Assembly: GCA_963844715.1 (NCBI GenBank)
Contig: CAWJPJ010000005.1
Location: 64,001-128,000 of the forward strand
DNA length: 64,000 nucleotides
Reading direction: 5' to 3'
Origin: an uncultured Phycisphaerales bacterium
Lineage (GTDB): Bacteria; Planctomycetota; Phycisphaerae; Tepidisphaerales; Tepidisphaeraceae
The notes under the pieces are model-generated. The model searched no databases, had not been told where the DNA came from, and worked only from the letters and a program-made list of their open reading frames with translations. Positions 35,497-60,029 of this stretch are shown piece after piece; the stretch's first letter is position 1; every line of letters starts with the position of its first letter. A program made the translations under genes and the position numbers.

Positions 35497-35512
35497 TGGC
35501 ACGCCCCTTGAT
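35497..35512 (+). promoter_or_regulatory. Possible sigma54 promoter of the flg operon
   Basis: TGGCACGCCCCTTGAT: -24 element perfect, -12 element GA instead of GC. Confidence 0.45.
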
Positions 35513-35551
35513 CTAGCCCCGGTTGCTCTTTGGCGCTTGCGGAGTAACTAC

Positions 35552-40511: not shown

Positions 40512-40977
40512 ATGGACGTATCCACGAATCTTTGGCAAGCCCGCGAGCAGATGGAAAAATGCGCAGCCGACAAATCCTGGGGCCACAACATCGGCCAGGC
40601 GGTCGGCCGCTCCAAGCGCCATGACGCCCTCGTCAAGCAAACCCGCAAATGGGTCGCCCAGACTTTCTTCGGACCCATCCTCAAGCAAATGCGGCGAAGA
40701 CCCGTTCCACAGCGACCTACTAGACGGCGGCAGGGGAGGCCAGGCGTTTTATGAACTCTACGACCAGGAATTGACCAGCCACCTGACCCGCGGCACCGGA
40801 AGCAAGCTCATCAACGCCATCGTCAACCGCATCGAGGCCAAGAATGCTTACGCCAAACAGAGCATGAACGCGATCAATTCCGAACGCGAGGGCGCCGACC
40901 GCGTCCATGTGATCAGAAATGCTGAAGCCAATCTGTCCGTCGCCACACGGAGCAGCAATGTCCCGCCAGCTTTCTGA
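40512..40977 (+). CDS. flgJ: FlgJ-type rod-binding protein without hydrolase domain (frameshift near 40695)
   Basis: QTFFGPILKQMR / DGGRGGQAFYELYDQEL; follows flgI. Confidence 0.7.
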
Positions 40978-41450
40978 CCTCAAAACGGTCCTGGAACAAC
41001 TGATCGCCGAGCAGGGGAAATTGCTTGCGCTATTGGAGGCGCAGTACACGGCGATGAAGAAATGGGACGTCAAGGCGATCCTCGAACTGGGCCACGATCA
41101 GGAGTCGACGCGCTCTGCGCATCTTCTCCCTCGAACACCGGCGCCGCGCGATCGTCCGCCAGATCGCCGCCGGGGCCAAGCTCAACGAGGAGCCGAGCAT
41201 TTCGCGCCTCATCGAACTTTTTCCCCCGTTCGCGCCGGACCTGATTCGCCTCCGCGACCAGCTCCGCGCCGTCATCGGGAAGATTTCGCATCGCGCCTCG
41301 ATGGCCGCGAAACTATCGGCGGCGGTCCTGGGGCATCTGAACACCGCCGTTCGTCTTGTCGCCGGCGCCATCGAACGCGCCGGCGTGTATACGCGCACCG
41401 GCTCGCCCAAGGTCGCCGCACGAATCGGAAACATGGATGCAATCGGCTGA
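40958..41450 (+). CDS. flgN: Flagellar export chaperone (frameshift near 41115)
   Basis: Helical protein LEQLIAEQGKLLALLEAQ...GVYTRTG directly before flgK. Confidence 0.7.
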
Positions 41451-41462
41451 TCGGAAATTGAT

Positions 41463-43171
41463 ATGTCTCTAATTGGCGCATTGAACGTCGGACAGTCGGC
41501 CCTGGCGGTGAACTCCGCCGCGCTGCAAGTCACCGGCAACAACATCGCCAACGCCGGCAACGCCAATTACGCTCGCGAAGTCGCCGACGTCACCCCCGCC
41601 GCGGATCAGCAACTTGCCCCCGGTTTATTCGTCGGGACCGGCATCGATCTCACCGACGTCCAGCGCCAGGTCGACGAATCCCTGAATGGCCGCCTCAATT
41701 CCGCCATCAGCGACAACAACGCCGCCAACGTCAATTCCCAGTGGAGCGGGCAGATTCAATCGATATTCAACGCCCTGGGCAGCCAGAACCTCAGCACGGA
41801 CATGACCACTTTCCTGGGAAGTTGGTCCACGCTGGCCAACAATCCGCAGGATTCCGCCCAGCGGCAGGTCGTCCTGCAAGCCGGCCAGACCGTCACTCAG
41901 GACTTCAATAATCTCTCCACCCAACTCGGAACGATTCAGACCAACATCGGCCAGCAACTTACCACGCTCACCGGCCAAGCCAACCAATACGCGACTGAAA
42001 TCGCACAGCTCAACACCCAGATCGCCAATTCCCAGGGCGGCAGCGCCATCGAGCCTGGCGGCGACAACAGCCTCCTCGACCAGCGCGATCAGCTCGTCCA
42101 GCAGCTTTCGCAACTTGTCAACGTGCAGGCCGTTAATCAGGGGAACGGCACCGTCAACCTTTATGTCGGCTCCGAGCCGCTTGTCATGGCCGGAAGCACC
42201 CGCGGACTGACCGTCGTTCCGCAGCAGATGAACGGCCAGCCCAACTACCAGATCGTTTTCACTTCCGACAACAGCCCCGTTCAGGCCACCAGCGGGCAAA
42301 TCAGCGGCGCTCCTCAATTCCCAGACGCAGGCCGCCACCGTCTCGCAGCAATTGAGCAATCTCGCCGCCGGTTTCATCTCTTCGGTCAACGACATTCACG
42401 CCAGCGGGCAAGGCACGACCGGATTCACGTCCGTGACGGGAACCAATCAGGTTCTCGATCCCACCGCCGCGCTGAATAGCACCGCCGCCGGCCTCCAATT
42501 CCCGCCGAAAAACGGCAGCTTCGTTGTGAGTGTGACCGACACGTCGACCGGGCTCTCCTCCAGCACCCTCGTCCCGGTCTCACTTACGGGTAGCCCCGGC
42601 GACACAACGCTGAACAGCCTCGTCACCAGCCTCAACGCCATCTCCGGCGTCCAGGCATCCGTTGCCGGGGGACAGCTCACTATCGCCTCGACCAATCCCA
42701 ATCAAACCATTTCATTCAGCCAGGATTCCAGCAACGTCCTGGCGGCTCTGGGCATCAATACCTTTTTCCAGGGTTCCAACGGCGCAGAATATCGCCGTGA
42801 ATTCCTTCTTGCAGAGCAACCCGCAATTCGTCGCCGCCGCCCAAAACGGCAGCGCCGACGACAACAGCAACGCCCTCGCTCTGGCCAATGCCGGAAACGT
42901 CAGTCAGACCGTTTTGAACGGCCAGTCGGTCAACGACGCTTACAGTTCCATGATGAACGGCGTCGCCACCGCCGCTTCCACGGCCACCAACAACGCGTCT
43001 TCCACGCTCGACATCGTGAACACGCTGCAAGCCCAGCAGCAAGCGGTCAGCGGCGTCAGTATCGATGAGGAAACCATCAACCTTATCAAGCAGCAGCAGG
43101 CGTATGCCGGCGCCGCGCGGGTGATTTCAACCGTCGATCAAATGGTGCAGTCGCTTTTGGCCATTACTTAA
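41463..43171 (+). CDS. flgK: Hook-associated protein 1 (two frameshifts)
   Basis: LQVTGNNIANAGNANYARE...LLDQRDQL...SGVSIDEETINLIKQQQAYAGAARVI. Confidence 0.93.
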
Positions 43172-43179
43172 AGGCAAGT

Positions 43180-45102
43180 ATGTCCGTCGTACCCGTTGGT
43201 CTTGTTCGCGTCAGCAACCTGCTGCAAACCAGCCTTGCGCAGGAGTCTATCGACAGCGTACAGAGCCAGCTTCTTCAGGTTCAGAACGAACTGACGACCG
43301 GCAAGCAGGTCAACCAGCCCAGCGACAATCCCGCCGCCGCGGCGTCCATCGAGACATTGAATCAAACCCTGGCCCAGCGCCAGACCTATTCCGACAACAT
43401 CAATTCAGCCAGCGCCCAGATGAGCGAGGCCGATTCCACCCTCGGCAATCTCACCACTCTGCTCCAGCAAGCCGAGACCATCGCCTCCAGCAACGTCGGC
43501 TCCGACGTCTCCGCCTCCCAGCAGCAAAGCGCCAGCTCCGTCGTGCAGAGCCTTTTCAATCAGGCCCTGAACGTCGGAAACACCCAGTACAACAGTATGT
43601 ATCTCTTCGGCGGCGCCGACGCTCAGCAGGCTCCGTTCTCGGCCACCAACGGCGGCGTGATGTTCGTCGGCTCGACGCAAACCCTACAAAACACCGCCGA
43701 TGCCGGACTTCTCGTCCCCTTCCAGATCGATGGCGCCAGCGTCTTCGGCTCCAACACCACCGGCGTAACCGGCACCACCAATATTTCCCCGCAGCTCACC
43801 GCCTCGACGCGCCTTTCCGATATCGCCGGCACCGCCGGTGACGGGATCCGCCTCGGCACCGTTCAAATCAGCGACGGAACCGTCACTAAAACCGTCGACC
43901 TGAGCAGTGCCTCCAGCATCGGCGACGTCGTCAACCTCATCAACAACGCCGGCGTGAGTTCCATCACCGCTTCCATCTCGGGCCAGGGTCTCACCCTTAC
44001 GGGCACCTCCGGCGAAAATATATCAGTCACCGATGTCGCGGGAACCGCCGCGGCCGACCTGGGCATCGCCACTCCCACCGGAGGAATGGGCGACGGCAAT
44101 CCCGACGTCGGCTCGTCCATGAACCCGCGCGTCACCGATCTCACCGCCATCTCCGATCTCGACGACGGCTCCGGAATCGACCCCTCCGGCATGATCATCA
44201 GCAACGGCAGCACGACCAAAACCATCACCTGGTCCGCCGGTGCGACGGTGGGGGATCTTCTCAACTCCATCAACGGCGCCGGCCTCGGAGTTCAAGCCTC
44301 GATCAACTCCGCCGGAACCGGCCTCAATATCGTCAACTCCACCCAGGGAACGACTCTTTCCATCGCCGAAAACGGCGGCGACACCGCGACCGAACTTGGG
44401 CTCCGCACCTACAGCCCGACCACGCTTCTGTCATCCATGAACAACGGCCAGGGCATCACCACCGCCGGCGCCGGAACCCCCGATTTTCAAATCACTGCCG
44501 CCAATGGAACCGTCTTCCCGGTCACCCTCGGCTCGGCGACAACCATCCAGGATGTCATCAACGCGATCAATAACGCCCCTGGAAACCCCGGCGTCACCGC
44601 CAGCTTCGCCACCACCGGCAACGGAATTGTCCTCACCGATACCACCGGTGGCAGCGGCTCGCTGGCCGTCAACGCCTTGAATAACTCCAATGTCGCCGCC
44701 GAACTCGGCCTGACCAATCCCCCGACCGGCAATACCGTCAACGGGGGCGACGTTAACCTCATTCAAAGCACCGGCGTCTTCGCCGACCTCCAGCAGCTCA
44801 TCACCGGCCTCCAGACCGGGAATTCCAAGATGATTACCGCTGCCGGAACGGGAATCCAAAACGACATTAATAACGTGATATCCGTCCGCGGCCAGGCGGG
44901 CGCCGTCGCCCAGCAACTGGCCAGCCAGCAGACCCAGATCACCCAGGAGAATACCGCGACCCAGTCGCTGATATCCCAGCTCCAGGACGTGAACATCGCC
45001 GACGCGGTCACGCAGTTCCAGCAGTTGCAGACCGCCCTGCAGGCGAGCCTGCAAACGACGGCGATGTCCCTGAGCCTCACCCTTTTGGACTTTTTGACAT
45101 GA
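43180..45102 (+). CDS. flgL: Hook-associated protein 3 with insertion domains
   Basis: TTGKQVNQPSDNP...YLFGG...LQDVNIADAV...SLTLLDFL. Confidence 0.93.
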   Translation: MSVVPVGLVRVSNLLQTSLAQESIDSVQSQLLQVQNELTTGKQVNQPSDNPAAAASIETLNQTLAQRQTYSDNINSASAQMSEADSTLGNLTTLLQQAETIASSNVGSDVSASQQQSASSVVQSLFNQALNVGNTQYNSMYLFGGADAQQAPFSATNGGVMFVGSTQTLQNTADAGLLVPFQIDGASVFGSNTTGVTGTTNISPQLTASTRLSDIAGTAGDGIRLGTVQISDGTVTKTVDLSSASSIGDVVNLINNAGVSSITASISGQGLTLTGTSGENISVTDVAGTAAADLGIATPTGGMGDGNPDVGSSMNPRVTDLTAISDLDDGSGIDPSGMIISNGSTTKTITWSAGATVGDLLNSINGAGLGVQASINSAGTGLNIVNSTQGTTLSIAENGGDTATELGLRTYSPTTLLSSMNNGQGITTAGAGTPDFQITAANGTVFPVTLGSATTIQDVINAINNAPGNPGVTASFATTGNGIVLTDTTGGSGSLAVNALNNSNVAAELGLTNPPTGNTVNGGDVNLIQSTGVFADLQQLITGLQTGNSKMITAAGTGIQNDINNVISVRGQAGAVAQQLASQQTQITQENTATQSLISQLQDVNIADAVTQFQQLQTALQASLQTTAMSLSLTLLDFLT

Positions 45103-45106
45103 GGCG

Positions 45107-45122
45107 TGGCACGCGGATTGCA
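45107..45122 (+). promoter_or_regulatory. Sigma54 (-24/-12) promoter
   Basis: TGGCACGCGGATTGCA, exact TGGCAC-N5-TTGCA consensus, 5 bp after the flgL stop. Confidence 0.8.
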
Positions 45123-45132
45123 AGGAAAGTGG

Positions 45133-45478
45133 TGCGATGTAGATTGCGACAGTATTATAAGCAATCGAACGCATAGGAGCGCAGAAAATTCTGCCGGGAG
45201 AGGCGGAAATTGCCGGCCGGGGACCGTGTGAAAAAACGCGGCCGGTCGGATGAATGAAAGGGACCGCGGAGACGGTCCCCGGCGCGGCGGAGCCGCGCCA
45301 CGACGCCTTTGGGGCCTTGGAGGCCCGGGCGAACCTCCGTTCTGCGGAGGGGTGAATGGATTCACGCGCGGCGGACGCCGCGCAGCAAGCCGACGGTGTG
45401 TCGCCGGCGGCGAAGGAGTCGCAAACCGGACGGTCCTCCCGTTATGGAGACGCCGGTCCATGCTGCATAGGAGCACTC
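45133..45478 (+). ncRNA. Putative CsrA-binding RNA (CsrB/RsmZ-like GGA hairpin array) forming the fliW-csrA leader
   Basis: About 11 stem-loops with GGA in the loop, e.g. GGGACCG-cggaga-CGGTCCC, GGCGCGGC-gga-GCCGCGCC, GTGAA-tgga-TTCAC, GCGCGGC-ggac-GCCGCGC; 5' end inferred from the promoter. Confidence 0.65.
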
Positions 45479-45929
45479 ATGGAAATCGAAACTTCCCGTT
45501 TCGGAGTACTGTCGATTGACGACCAGCGAATCATGACTTTCCCAAAGGGACTCCTCGGATTCCCGGGTCAGTCCAGATTCGCACTGATCAAGGCCGGCCA
45601 GAACAATTACTTCTTCTGGCTGCAAAGTGTTGACGATCCCCACCTCGCCTTCGTGGTGACGGATCCGAGCACTTTCTTCAAGGACTACGACGTCGCCCTT
45701 GCGCGATGAAACGATCGCGGACCTCGAGTTGGTCGACCCCGCCGCCATGCAGGTCTTCGTGATCTGCAACAAAGTCGGCGAATGGCTGACCGGAAATCTG
45801 CTCGGCCCGATCGTCGTCAACACCGCCAGCCGACTTGCCCAGCAAATCGTGCTGACGGAAAAGAAGTGGACGACCCGGCAGCCCCTGCTGCGGCTGCAAG
45901 CCGAGGTGCAACTGGCCAAATCGGCGTGA
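45479..45929 (+). CDS. fliW: Flagellar assembly factor and CsrA antagonist (frameshift near 45700)
   Basis: MEIETSRFG...FPKGLLGF...[18 protein letters not shown] / [11 protein letters not shown]...QQIVL. Confidence 0.93.
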
Positions 45930-46053
45930 GGGTGTTCAGGGGGCACGCCGGACGGTTGCGATTGCGCAACCGCGAGGCTTCGTGACAGGGATGTCATGCG
46001 ACATCGCCCGCGCCTGTTCAACAGGTCCGCGGGCTGACAGGAAGGAGCCTGAA

Positions 46054-46305: not shown

Positions 46306-46372
46306 GCGGCAAAGGCTATGTTGATGTCCCGCCCAAATCGTCTATCGCCAGACACAATCATGGAGGATTGAC

Positions 46373-47806
46373 GTGTCCGTTATTAACACAAATGTCGCGG
46401 CCCTTATCGCGCAAAACGGCCTGGCAAATTCAGAGACTTCTCTAAATCAGGCGTTGCAACGCCTCAGCACCGGTCTACGCATTAACAGCGGCGCGGATGA
46501 TCCCGCCGGGTTGATCGCAAGCCAGTCGCTTCAAAGCGAGATGGCCGGTTTACAGGCGGCGATCAGCAACAGCGCCACCGCCACCAACGTGATCTCGACG
46601 GCCGATGCCGCCCTTTCCGAGGTATCGTCCCTTCTGCAAAACGTAAAGGGTCTGGTTGTCGCGTCCGCCAACTCCGGCGCTTTGTCTCCGCAGGAACTCC
46701 AGGCGAACCAGCTCCAGGTCGATTCCGCGGTGCAGAGCATCACGCGAATCGCCTCGACCACCAGTTTCGCCGGTCTCAACCTGCTCGACGGCAGTCTCGA
46801 TTACATCACCAGCGGCGTGCACAGCAGCGCCATCGCGGCGCTGAGCATCTCCCAGGCCAATCTCGGCACCGCCGTCAGCATGCCCGTCAATATCAACGTC
46901 ATCAGCAGCGCCAAGCTCGCCGATCTTCGGTTTGTGGGCAGCTCCATCGGCACCAGCACCACGCTCTCCATCGGCGGAACCGAAGGCGTTCAGACTCTCT
47001 CCTTCGTCAGCGGAACCACCGCTTCGGCGATCGCCTTTGCCGTCAACAACATCTCCGACAGCACCGGCGTCTCCGCCAATTTGATTAATAGCGCCAGTCC
47101 GACTTCCGGCGTTAATTTCACCAGCACGACCTACGGATCCAAGTCGTTCGTCTCGATCCAGGCCCAGACCGGAACCTTCACGACCGAGGACCTCACCGGC
47201 GCCGTCAAGGCCCGCAGCACCGGCGCGGACGCCGTCGCCACCATCAATGGCGCCGTCACCGTCGGATCGGGTCAGGACCTCACTCTCAATACCTCGACCC
47301 TCGATCTGAATCTAACCCTGAACAACTCCTTTGGCATTGGCCAAACGAGCTTCGCCATCACCGGAGGCGGCGCCAACTTCCAGCTCGGCTCGCAGGTCGC
47401 CAGCGACCAGCAAGTCAGCATCGGAATTGGTTCCGTTGCCGCCAGCCAGCTCGGCAATAACGCCGACGGCTTCCTGAACGATATCGCAACCGGCGGCAGC
47501 GCCACCTTGGTCGGCGGGCAAGCCGAAACGGCCAGCACAATCATCGACGACGCCATCAACCAGGTCGCCGTTCTGCGTGGAAGACTCGGCGCTTTTGAAG
47601 CCAATACGCTGGAAACCAACTCCAGCGCCTTGCAGGTAGCGCTTCAGAACGTCACCAGCAGCGAAAGTGACATCACCGACGCGAATTTCGCCCAGGAAAC
47701 CAGCAATTTGACGCGCGCTCAGATTCTGGTCCAGGCCGGAACCAGCGTCCTGGCCACCGCAAATACCATCCCGCAGACCGCTCTGACGCTGCTCACCGGC
47801 CATTAA
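46373..47806 (+). CDS. fliC: Flagellin 1
   Basis: INTNVAAL...[18 protein letters not shown]...RGRLGAF...[19 protein letters not shown]. Confidence 0.96.
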   Translation: MSVINTNVAALIAQNGLANSETSLNQALQRLSTGLRINSGADDPAGLIASQSLQSEMAGLQAAISNSATATNVISTADAALSEVSSLLQNVKGLVVASANSGALSPQELQANQLQVDSAVQSITRIASTTSFAGLNLLDGSLDYITSGVHSSAIAALSISQANLGTAVSMPVNINVISSAKLADLRFVGSSIGTSTTLSIGGTEGVQTLSFVSGTTASAIAFAVNNISDSTGVSANLINSASPTSGVNFTSTTYGSKSFVSIQAQTGTFTTEDLTGAVKARSTGADAVATINGAVTVGSGQDLTLNTSTLDLNLTLNNSFGIGQTSFAITGGGANFQLGSQVASDQQVSIGIGSVAASQLGNNADGFLNDIATGGSATLVGGQAETASTIIDDAINQVAVLRGRLGAFEANTLETNSSALQVALQNVTSSESDITDANFAQETSNLTRAQILVQAGTSVLATANTIPQTALTLLTGH

Positions 47807-47838: not shown

Positions 47839-47872
47839 AAGGCGGCCCGATTTCGGGTCGCCTTTTTCTTTT
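47839..47872 (+). terminator. Intrinsic terminator
   Basis: AAGGCGGCCCGA-tt-TCGGGTCGCCTT followed by a T tract. Confidence 0.85.
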
Positions 47873-47987: not shown

Positions 47988-48015
47988 TAAAGTGCCCCTA
48001 TCTCGCCGTCGATAC
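47988..48015 (+). promoter_or_regulatory. Sigma28-type promoter of flagellin 2
   Basis: TAAA-N16-GTCGATAC. Confidence 0.65.
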
Positions 48016-49698: not shown

Positions 49699-49837
49699 CG
49701 TTTCCCACTACCTTCCCGCCGATAAAAATTCCATTCCTCCCGTTTGACTCGCCCACTTCGCAAATTTCGGGTTCTTCTGCACCGCCGTATTTTCCCCCGC
49801 CCTATAACACACCGCGCCCAGCCGCGTCGTTTTGGCA

Positions 49838-49865
49838 AAAGATTCTTTGCTCACTCCGTCGATTC
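49838..49865 (+). promoter_or_regulatory. Possible sigma28 promoter of flagellin 3
   Basis: AAAG-N16-GTCGATTC, weaker match. Confidence 0.4.
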
Positions 49866-50198: not shown

Positions 50199-51610
50199 AT
50201 GAGCGTAATAAACACCAACGTCAGCTCGTTGATTGCGCAGCGATCGCTGCAGCAAAACAACGAGGCGCTGTCCACCAGTCTTGAACGGCTCAGCACCGGT
50301 CTCCGCATCAACAGCGGCGCCGACGATCCGGCAGGTCTGATTGCCAGCCAACAGTTACAACAGGAACAAACCGGCATTCAGCAAGCCATCAGCAACGCCA
50401 GCCTCGCTGGCAACGTCATTGGCACCGCTGAAGGCGGTCTGAACGAAGTCAGCAGTCTGCTGCTTCAGCTCCAAGGTCTGATCGGCCAGGCCGCCAACTC
50501 CGGCGGCCTCAGCTCCGACCAGGTCTCCGCTGACCAGTTGCAGGTTGACTCGATCCTCACCACCATCAACAGAATTGCCGGCTCGACCACCTTCGAAGGC
50601 CAGCAACTTCTTAACGGCAACCTCGACTACACCACCAGCGGTGTCGTTGCCTCCTCGATCTCGGCGCTACAGGTCAACAGCGCCCTGGTCCCCGACGGAG
50701 GCACCGTCGGCGTCGCGGTTCAGGTCGTCACCTCCGGTAAGACCGGCACCGTCACCTACACCGGCGGCACCGTCACCGGCAGCACCGTGACCCTTCAGAT
50801 CGCCGGCAACACCGGGACTACCCAGTTGTCGTTCGCTTCTGGATCGACCATTTCCTCGATCGCCACCGCCATCAACGGCGTCAAAAATTCCACGGGTCTA
50901 TCCGCCCAGGTAAGCGGCACAGACCTGCGCATCAACTCCACGGAATTCGGATCGACCCAGTTCGTCAGCGTCGCTGCGCTGGCGGGAACTTTCTCCGGCC
51001 TCAGCTCCAGCAACAAGCAGTTTGGAGCCGACGCCGACATCACCGTCAACGGCGCGGCCGCTAACGTCGCGGGTCTGGCTGTCAGCTACCGCAACTCCAG
51101 CCTCGACGTCAGCTTCAACCTTGCCCAGAAGTATGACAAGCCGGGTTCGCAGACCTTCTACATCACCGGCGGCGGGGCGACCTTTGCCCTCGGTTCCCAG
51201 GTTACTGAAACCAACAAGGCCTCCATCGGAATCGCTTCCGTATCCACCGGCGATCTCGGAAATTCCGTCGATGGATACCTCAGCTCGCTCGGCAGCGGCG
51301 GCACCAACAGCCTCTCCAGCGGGAATCTGACCGTCGCTCAGACCATTCTGAACGACGCCGTCGATCAGGTCAGCAGTCTCCGAGGCCGTTTGGTGCGTTC
51401 CAATCGTTGACCATCGGGTCCACGGTGAACAGCCTGGGCGTCGCGTACGAAAACGTGTCGGCCGCCGAATCGGCGATCACCGATACCGACTTCGCGCAGG
51501 AAACCAGCAACCTGACGCGCGATCAGATCCTGTCGCAGGCGGCTACCACCGTCCTGGCCCAGGCAAACGCGACCCCTCAAGAGGCCTTGACCCTGCTGCA
51601 AGGCCACTAA
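50199..51610 (+). CDS. fliC: Flagellin 3 (frameshift near 51390)
   Basis: Close paralog of flagellin 2; ORFs 50199..51410 and 51407..51610. Confidence 0.94.
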
Positions 51611-58454: not shown

Positions 58455-58564
58455 ATTAGCACAGAGCACACAGAGAGCACAGAGAGCACGGAGAAGACAA
58501 ATCAAAAAAACTGAATTTGAATTTTCTCCGTGTCCTCTGTGTGCTCTGTGGTCTCTGTGCTAAT
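58455..58564. repeat. Inverted repeat of 9-bp units (CACAGAGnn)
   Basis: ATTAGCACAGAGCACACAGAGAGCACAGAGAGCACGGAG ... CTCCGTGTCCTCTGTGTGCTCTGTGGTCTCTGTGCTAAT. Confidence 0.9.
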
Positions 58565-58601
58565 TCTTTTGAGTTCCGACGTGGGACAAACAATCAATCG
58601 A

Positions 58602-59881
58602 CTACCGAAGTAGCGAGCTAACCGGCGTAGCCGGATCGCGAACTTTTCTTCAATCCCCTCGACAGGCAATCGCCGCTTAACCAGTTCCACCAATTCCGCC
58701 CGGCTGTCGCAATGCCCAACCGCGATCGTCTGCGCCATCCGCCCATCCGCGGCCACGCCGATCTCCACAAAACTGGGCGAATCCGCCGCCGCACCGATCG
58801 ACTCCCGATTGATCCGCCGATCCACCAGCTTTCCCTCGCCCCAAACATCCGTGCGCAGACCGAGCACATGCGTATGAAAATGGCTGACCGAATCGTAGAC
58901 CGCCGAGCCGCCGGCCATGTTGATTCCCGCGATCGCGCCGGTTTCCGCCGCGCTCTCCCAGTGATTCAGCAGCCGATGCTTCCCGAAGAGCGGATCGAAT
59001 AGCGCCGCGCAATCTCCCGCCGCGAAAATCGACGGTACATTCGTCTCGCACCGCTGGTCCACCAGCACCGCCTTCTCCGCCACGATCGGCGTTCCGCGCA
59101 AAAGTTCGCGATGCGGATCCAATCCCACCGCCGCCACCGCGAAATCCGCGTCGATCGAATCCCCGCCGGCCAGTACCACGCGCTGCACGCGCCCGTCGCC
59201 TTCGAGGTGCGCCACGCGATCCGCCGCGTGCACCGTGATCCCGTGCCGCTCGAGGAATCGCGCCATCCATTTCCCCGTCGCCTCACCCGCGAAATAGCTC
59301 CATGGATAATTCCCCGCCATCACCAGCGCAACGTGCAATCCAGCTTCAGAGAGCGTCCCCGCCAGCTCCACGCCCAGCAGCCCGCCGCCGATCACAACGG
59401 ATCGTCCGCGCCCGCGATGATGGGTCCGGCCCTCGCGTTTTGCCTTATCGATCGCGTGAACGAGCCGATCCGCGTCCTCGAGAGTTCTCAAATAAAAGAG
59501 GTTCGGCAAATCCGCCCCCGGCACGCGCAGCGCCCGCGGCGAACCGCCCGTAGCTATCAGCAACTGATCGAATGAGATCTCTTCCCCGCTCCCCAGCACA
59601 ACCGCATGACGATGCGCATCCAAATATGTTGCGTACTGCCCAGTGCGCAACTGAACATTGTGTTCGACAAACCACTCGGCCGGCAAAGTGAACACCTCGC
59701 CATGTCCGCGCTGTCCAAGCAAAAATTGCCGGCTCAGCGGCGGCCGATGGTAGGGCCGGTTGATCTCCTGACCCACCAGGAGCAAATCCCCGCGCGGATC
59801 GAGCTTGCGGATTTCGACCGCGGCGTGGCTTGACGCAACGCCACCGCCCACCAATAGATATTTCACGTGTAGCCGACTCAT
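58602..59881 (-). CDS. FAD-dependent NAD(P) oxidoreductase (ferredoxin reductase-like)
   Basis: LVGGGVA, PYHRPPLS, LIATGG, VIGGGLLGVE, IFAAGD; probable frameshift near the 3' end. Confidence 0.88.
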
Positions 59882-60029
59882 AACGGCGACTCCTACTACA
59901 TAAAGACGCTTACCAAACGTCCATGTTCGCGCGTCTCTGCCGCCGCTTTGAGCGGAAAGACATCCCTAAATACTCCAGGTGCCTATAAAACGGCAATCCG
60001 TGTGCCGCACAATTTCACAATAAGAATAT

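Follow-up and report, generated by a model that had tools for sequence, protein, structure and literature searches.

A family-wide GGA-hairpin leader upstream of fliW-csrA-flagellin in Tepidisphaeraceae, a candidate multi-site CsrA operator

The flaA mRNA leader of Campylobacter jejuni is a target of CsrA and also titrates it beside FliW (Dugar 2016, PMC4894983), and this two-site leader is the only case in which joint control of CsrA by FliW and an RNA antagonist has been shown. In Bacillus subtilis, fliW overlaps csrA and the two are translationally coupled, fixing the FliW:CsrA ratio (Oshiro 2019, PMC6529632); the csrA leader of Escherichia coli carries four sites, one of them over the Shine-Dalgarno sequence (SD) (PMC7652899); and the fimAICDHF 5′ untranslated region (UTR) of Salmonella, with CsrB/C-like motifs, sequesters CsrA (described in PMC13501541 and PMC4894983). 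Planctomycetes have been put on the FliW side, FliW being anti-correlated with BarA-UvrY (PMC4682653), a 2020 review calls a dedicated Csr small RNA (sRNA) acting with FliW undetermined (PMC7652899), and a 2026 paper describes FliW species as being without such sRNAs (PMC13407953). Here we describe the sequence directly upstream of fliW-csrA in a 64,000-nucleotide (nt) stretch of DNA from an uncultured Phycisphaerales bacterium of the Tepidisphaeraceae, planctomycetes of soil and freshwater (positions 64,001 to 128,000 of contig CAWJPJ010000005.1, assembly GCA_963844715.1; hereinafter the window), a family with motile cultured members (PMC13514998).

In the window, a σ54 (–24/–12) promoter motif is followed by a leader holding a row of hairpins with GGA in their loops, and then by fliW, csrA and flagellin 1 (Table 1). 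This multi-hairpin leader is real and family-wide, and apparently undescribed: in the openly accessible main-text literature we found no description of an array in a fliW or csrA leader of planctomycetes and none of a GGA array on csrA's own mRNA. We favor, with somewhat better than even confidence, its reading as a multi-site CsrA operator on a σ54 mRNA, in which each cistron would be repressed and the array would recruit CsrA dimers and provide spare capacity. We regard repression by CsrA at the three start sites as very likely and binding of CsrA by the array itself as probable. The array may buffer or partly soak up CsrA via csrA's own message; a titration with effects on other mRNAs is conceivable, but we lean against it.

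The window's leader, 346 nt up to the fliW start, folds with a z-score of –5.3. Its minimum-free-energy (MFE) structure holds seven GGAs in loops compared with 0.9 in shuffles of the region 45130-45482 (none of the 300 reaches seven), the total GGA count is 16 compared with 10.6 (8 of 300 reach 16), and no GGA falls in an MFE loop on the reverse strand. This enrichment of GGA in loops over shuffles agrees with the preliminary description of this DNA, which had listed 11 short stems with GGA in the loop. All 11 are found in place (45170-45181, 45189-45208, 45260-45279, 45281-45299, 45312-45326, 45352-45365, 45366-45383, 45410-45422, 45425-45434, 45440-45452 and 45464-45475) and fold in isolation, five of them strongly (those at 45189, 45260, 45281, 45312 and 45366; –9.5 to –16.2 kcal/mol) and the remaining six weakly (–0.7 to –2.8 kcal/mol), the A of the GGA in stem 45312 being paired in the best fold. 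The stems thus exist, but the count of loops has to be lowered: because the whole-leader ensemble buries 45428 and 45446 and leaves 45415 only ~40% open, the realistic number of exposed loops is 6-8 rather than 11.

Among 1958 crudely called upstream regions of the genome, the array region ranks first, with 6 of 11 loops containing GGA on a genome background of 978 of 12881 (7.6%). It is not unique by every measure, as the locus is merely within the top 7-10 of all 350-nt genome windows, and coding windows elsewhere match its counts under loose metrics. An Rfam scan of the leader returned eight matches at E ≤ 10, all far under the gathering score and none of them a Csr/Rsm family. Open reading frames (ORFs) of 89, 117 and 237 amino acids overlap the leader region; the earlier statement that it has no credible ORF nevertheless holds, because leader length modulo 3 is evenly spread (24/21/26 of 71 leaders) and the open stretch 5′ of fliW ranges from 1 to 163 codons. 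A leader peptide or an N-terminal extension of FliW is ruled out by the same even spread and by the scattered stops, and the leaders share no conserved reading frame. In a cross-locus blastp comparison, 40 of 170 pairs were viewed, and these link close relatives in several frames and on both strands. Nor is the array a repetitive extragenic palindromic (REP) element or other repeated palindrome, as its core unit has 22 copies scattered genome-wide, two of them here.

Enrichment of GGA in loops extends across the family. In 70 non-redundant leaders (sharing <25% of 12-mers, 143-564 nt long), counted after trimming off the 5′ box and the SD hairpin, with tetraloop bonuses off and 20 shuffle sets, 215 of 457 core loops contain GGA compared with 56 ± 7 in shuffles and with 7 of 450 on the opposite strand. 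Both loop classes contribute: GGA loops preceded by A (A-type) number 70 against 12.6 in shuffles (~5.5-fold), and those without it 145 against 44 (~3.3-fold). In the first 29 leaders, none of the other 64 possible triplets fills loops as often as GGA (140/284 loops versus 36). Perfect 5-bp hairpins include 75 with a triloop, which is GGA in 28 (shuffles, 0.7) on a total of 19 different stems, and 81 with a tetraloop, which contains GGA in 41 (shuffles, 1.8); the genome backgrounds are 22/851 (2.6%) and 33/913 (3.6%), respectively. The loop is thus conserved although the stems change. The commonest core units are GGCGGAGCC and GGCGGAUGC. Loop number rises with leader length (ρ = 0.72, n = 70, kin not being independent), and the closest genus carries tandem repeats of one hairpin unit. 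The σ54 motif lies just 3′ of flgL in 30 of the 33 family loci fetched. The proposal of a σ54-driven, strand-specific GGA-loop array conserved 5′ of a FliW-type fliW-csrA pair is supported. One unpublished genome (G004) enters some tallies, including that of CsrA matches per genome; the 70-leader statistics are independent of it.

Outside the family, the region 5′ of fliW showed no long array in any of 60 loci (14 + 26 + 20; 0-4 loops each, distant start sites being assigned crudely). In other Phycisphaerae, the fliW spacers on the flgL side measure 44-294 nt and hold 0-4 loops, and the promoter motif is not present there. In another Phycisphaerae family the long GGA-rich stretch is placed elsewhere in the operon: a csrA-flagellin spacer of 495 nt (L034) holds 17 GGAs and a terminator-like site before flagellin, and a fliW-csrA spacer of 648 nt (L046) holds 21 GGAs before csrA.

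Each of the three ribosome-binding sites is covered or flanked by a GGA-loop hairpin. The flagellin hairpin is an identical 16-mer in all 31 family loci that reach flagellin. At fliW, 68 of 70 leaders have GGAG no more than 20 nt from the start and 57 have A(U/C)GGAG, the form GAA-A(U/C)GGAG-UU(C/U) being found in 50, which supports the autoregulation suggested earlier as the likely role. In the spacers, GGA is preceded by an A at –1 or –2 in most of the loops that contain it (49/56 before csrA, 30/31 before flagellin). According to Duss et al., no base of the A(N)GGAX core is replaceable (PMC4005645), and most array loops should therefore bind weakly if this CsrA acts like RsmE. However, the FliW-type CsrAs of Helicobacter pylori and another species can cope with a loop that differs in size or position (PMC13443453). 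In addition, 6 of 24 loci (L156, L157, L158, L160, L174 and L175) have, upstream of flgF, a C-GGA-G triloop and a canonical ACGGAU hairpin 23 nt after it; of 72 cells in these stems 69 are paired, and in 9 of 12 pairs both partners have changed. This distance of 23 nt is near the 18-21 nt site spacing of one CsrA dimer (PMC4894983). Both observations keep the loops without a 5′ A in play, the flgF tandem hairpins being support, not proof, for their reading by CsrA. An expandable CsrA sponge in the 5′ end of the fliW-csrA-flagellin mRNA, with the C-GGA-G tri- and tetraloops as a second site class read in tandem with canonical sites, is a tentative extension for which we put the chances at clearly less than even.

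We consider the region quite likely to be the 5′ leader of a fliW-csrA-flagellin 1 mRNA rather than a sRNA. From the promoter on, no terminator-like site occurs on the + strand until 47839, past flagellin 1, and the array is therefore read as an mRNA leader, not a CsrB-like gene. Flagellin lies 3′ of csrA in 31 of 34 family loci, with a terminator-like site between them in none. The leader is continuous with coding mRNA and has GGA both at the SD and upstream, and fliW and csrA are adjacent in the flagellar cluster beside flagellin, as in the flagellin-FliW-CsrA switch. The preliminary description instead saw a CsrB/RsmZ-like sponge. A discrete sRNA of this kind, made by processing or factor-dependent termination and acting in trans parallel to FliW, would fit the region's own σ54 promoter, a structured RNA of 143-564 nt whose loop number grows with its length, the tandem units of the closest genus and the top rank among upstream regions. 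We nevertheless rate it as improbable: only two of 34 family leaders have even weak terminator candidates, no Csr/Rsm family is matched even at E 10, and the array continues straight into the fliW SD hairpin. GGAs in hairpin loops are multiple and above chance, as in CsrB/RsmZ, but A(N)GGA loops are the minority and the median leader has three loops, so the CsrB/RsmZ-like identity is not supported.

The predominance of non-A loops is also the starting point for the reading that the action of CsrA is confined to the canonical sites near the SDs and that the non-A hairpins either serve a different ligand (the second CsrA paralogue, FliW or a further RNA-binding protein) or protect the leader as stable structure, a leader that must be long because the DNA box described below lies 3′ of the start. 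The loop class indeed differs, in that 96 of 151 leader loops lack the A compared with 7 of 56 in the csrA spacer and 1 of 31 in the flagellin spacer; the genome has a second csrA; FliW of B. subtilis binds the hag leader weakly (PMC6529632); and leader cores fold far better than shuffles. Stability alone, however, leaves the choice of GGA over GAA or GCA unexplained with tetraloop bonuses off, A-type loops are themselves about five-fold enriched, and families with a single csrA match still carry arrays, array size being weakly related to the number of csrA matches (ρ = 0.33, p = 0.09, n = 28; 1-5 CsrA matches per family genome). We hold this reading to be unlikely but deserving of weight. That the array is a functionless by-product of GC-rich palindromic or REP-like sequence might be suspected from the GC content of ~65%, the local duplications that inflate counts and the coding windows that reach equal counts under loose metrics; it is already largely refuted by the strand-specificity (215 versus 7), by conservation over 70 diverged leaders on many different stems and by the first place among upstream regions; the scatter of the core unit over the genome also speaks against it, and we give it hardly any credence.

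Several observations weigh against the operator reading itself. The promoter motif is not present in 3 of the 33 family loci, and the box is not found at the flgB promoter or 5′ of flgF in 24 loci. Per leader, the best fold gives a median of three loops (range 0-10), which places the window at the rich end; five of the 70 cores hold no GGA loop, and in 20 of 34 family rows the array reaches significance when taken singly (0-2 of 40 shuffles). The array is not alignable, and the covariation of the fliW SD hairpin is not above shuffles, its 3-bp stem being nearly invariant; this hairpin is also weak in the window's genus. A 5′ A is present in 70 of the 215 leader-core loops and absent from 145, and the strongest stems of the window are among the latter. 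Finally, the six flgF loci were picked by loop motif, their structure was drawn from the alignment, and most of the tandem hairpins lie within a small ORF.

In the mechanism that we propose, whose CsrA-binding steps we infer throughout from sequence, an activator would bind the DNA box ~45-85 nt 3′ of the start and open the σ54 promoter. Free CsrA dimers would bind array loops, and dimers recruited by upstream loops would reach across to the weak fliW SD hairpin, repressing fliW; recruitment of a dimer from upstream sites to a weak ribosome-binding site has been described (PMC4005645). Separate canonical sites would mediate repression of csrA and flagellin. Such feedback would keep FliW, CsrA and flagellin in step, replacing the fliW-csrA translational coupling of B. 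subtilis; we place it at each start instead because the genes lie 115-450 nt apart. The extra, mostly lower-affinity loops would constitute spare CsrA capacity per transcript and set a threshold, such that a new burst of mRNA would be translated until CsrA exceeds the sites.

The leader is thus a family-wide candidate for control of CsrA by FliW and RNA together, with natural variants of 0-10 loops. It suggests another route to balance FliW, CsrA and flagellin, in which sites at all three cistrons would do the work of translational coupling, and raises the question whether CsrA reads GGA loops without a 5′ A. If the sponge reading is true, each mRNA encoding CsrA would bring along sites for titrating several dimers, this would be a FliW system with a multi-site RNA antagonist under σ54 control, and such a leader could represent a stage on the way to free RNAs of the CsrB type.

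The σ54 consensus claimed at the head of the leader is confirmed and begins four bases past the flgL stop codon, with no terminator-like site in between. The pattern TGGCAC[GA]N4TTGC has four matches in the 4.55-Mb genome, this being one of them, and rpoN is encoded in the same genome. The putative transcription start lies near 45133. Promoters of the σ54 type have been predicted earlier for csrA in Planctomycetia (PMC12316311). Within the leader, conservation is highest in the 5′ box rather than in the array; the second half-site of this box follows 22 nt on. In 35 of 41 leaders outside the set used to build the matrix, the best box match lies 70-73 nt from the promoter, the promoter being picked by box score in loci with several promoter matches; the spacer between them is variable in sequence and constant in length. 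RNAalifold found three consensus pairs for the box, all inside the promoter motif. The first ~85 nt thus hold a box that is phased to the promoter and has no consensus RNA fold; it is probably a protein-binding site on DNA, e.g. a downstream enhancer. Such enhancers are found at flagellar σ54 promoters bound by FlrC, FleQ and FlbD, and a Fis-type σ54 activator is encoded 5′ of flgB in this genome. The AT-rich spacer is a possible DNA-bending (IHF-type) site. For the box as an enhancer shared between flagellar operons we found no support: at the 17 other candidate σ54 promoters of the genome, no box of comparable score and place was seen.

Table 1 Features of the fliW-csrA leader and its surroundings (window positions)
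Feature	Position	Strand	Basis or remark
flgL (hook-associated protein 3)	43180..45102	+	closes flgF-flgL block
σ54 (–24/–12) promoter motif TGGCAC-N5-TTGCA	45107..45122	+	sequence motif
AT-rich promoter-box spacer, length conserved	45150..45169		
GGA-loop hairpin array of 5′ leader, 10 stems	45170..45452	+	folding, shuffles
Open A-type sites in array	45176, 45358; 45415 partly open	+	ensemble fold
Strong array stems without 5′ A	45197, 45268, 45289, 45319, 45373	+	
Phased box GCGCA-N8-TGCC with second GCR-N5/6-GC half	45179..45216		
Small hairpin, fliW SD (AUAGGAG) in loop	45464..45475	+	family consensus GAA-AUGGAG-UUC
fliW	45479..45929	+	two frames, break near 45695-45705 in assembly
Canonical CsrA-type hairpin (ACAGGGAUGU) in fliW-csrA spacer	45983..45997	+	
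csrA SD hairpin, AAGGAG loop	46038..46051	+	
csrA, 83 amino acids	46054..46305	+	FliW-type C-terminal extension, Asn55
Flagellin 1 SD hairpin CAAUC-A(U/C)GGAG-GAUUG	46355..46370	+	
Flagellin 1	46373..47806	+	
First intrinsic-terminator-like site 3′ of promoter	47839..47872	+	

The cluster in the window runs from flgF to flgL and on through fliW, csrA and three flagellins. Although fliW is split in the window, a feature that the preliminary description does not mention, each of the 47 other loci examined has it as one uninterrupted frame of 149-154 codons, and the relatives with an open fliW carry the same arrays, ruling out replacement of a broken fliW by the RNA. Split frames also occur in flgK (40512-43171), flagellin 3 (50199-51610), probably flgJ and flgN, and several σ54 activators, so an assembly indel is likely. 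The CsrA extension noted earlier is confirmed and includes an Asn at position 55 (N55 of CsrA is named in PMC13407953); the best PDB match of the csrA product is 5dmb_D, over residues 2-69. The second csrA, outside the flagellar cluster (L178:359-565; C7:112258-112464, – strand), is 67% identical, has the extension and is preceded by A-type GGA motifs.

Further σ54-like motifs lie 5′ of flgF (35497-35513) and, on contig C6, 5′ of flgB, for which reason the hook and basal-body operons appear to be σ54-driven. Another (59992-60007, – strand) lies 127 nt upstream of ORF 58502-59881, labeled by eye as FAD-dependent oxidoreductase-like. After the σ54 motif 5′ of flgF, most of the 24 loci (L154-L175) carry a small ORF whose product has a conserved helix (LGERI..AARLA) at its N terminus; the window's genome is without it and has a flgF leader of ~28 nt. 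Flagellins 2 and 3 are preceded by σ28-like motifs (47988-48014 and 49836-49865), each behind a terminator-like site, and both have the SD AUGGAG; the flagellin 3 leader (330 nt) contains 11 GGAs, one in a loop. The flgM upstream region (L177:406-809; C8:625205-625608), with GGA in 4 of 9 loops, is among the top 17 upstream regions and is a possible further CsrA target.

Compared with described systems, the locus shares with C. jejuni flaA a FliW-type setting and a GGA-hairpin mRNA leader, the roles as CsrA target and titrator being predicted here. The flaA leader, which shows that setting RNA titration and FliW apart as exclusive alternatives, as had been done in the preliminary description, was overstated, has two canonical hexaloop sites that probably hold one dimer (PMC4894983). 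By contrast, the leader in Tepidisphaeraceae spans 143-564 nt, presents up to ~10 mostly non-canonical loops, is predicted to be σ54-driven and sits on the fliW-csrA mRNA. The Salmonella fimAICDHF sponge is likewise a 5′ UTR with multiple CsrA motifs; it is gammaproteobacterial, operates without FliW, is not a CsrA target according to PMC4894983, and does not lead csrA.

With CsrB/CsrC and RsmX/Y/Z, the array has in common a row of short GGA-loop stems on one strand behind a dedicated promoter. These sRNAs, however, are free molecules that end in a terminator, have loops of the A(N)GGA type and are controlled by BarA-UvrY (PMC7652899, PMC4005645, PMC4682653), whereas the leader is without a terminator or an Rfam match, lacks the A in two thirds of its loops and follows a σ54 motif. 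As in the E. coli csrA leader, CsrA-type sites are located in csrA's own mRNA; the E. coli gene is monocistronic and without FliW, whereas here a site accompanies each of three cistrons and the size of the 5′ array varies. With the Hag-FliW-CsrA switch of B. subtilis, the locus shares the order flgL-fliW-csrA-flagellin, the extension with Asn55 and a GGA hairpin over the flagellin SD. Unlike in B. subtilis, a spacer of 115-450 nt with CsrA-type sites separates fliW from csrA, and a long leader lies 5′ of fliW.
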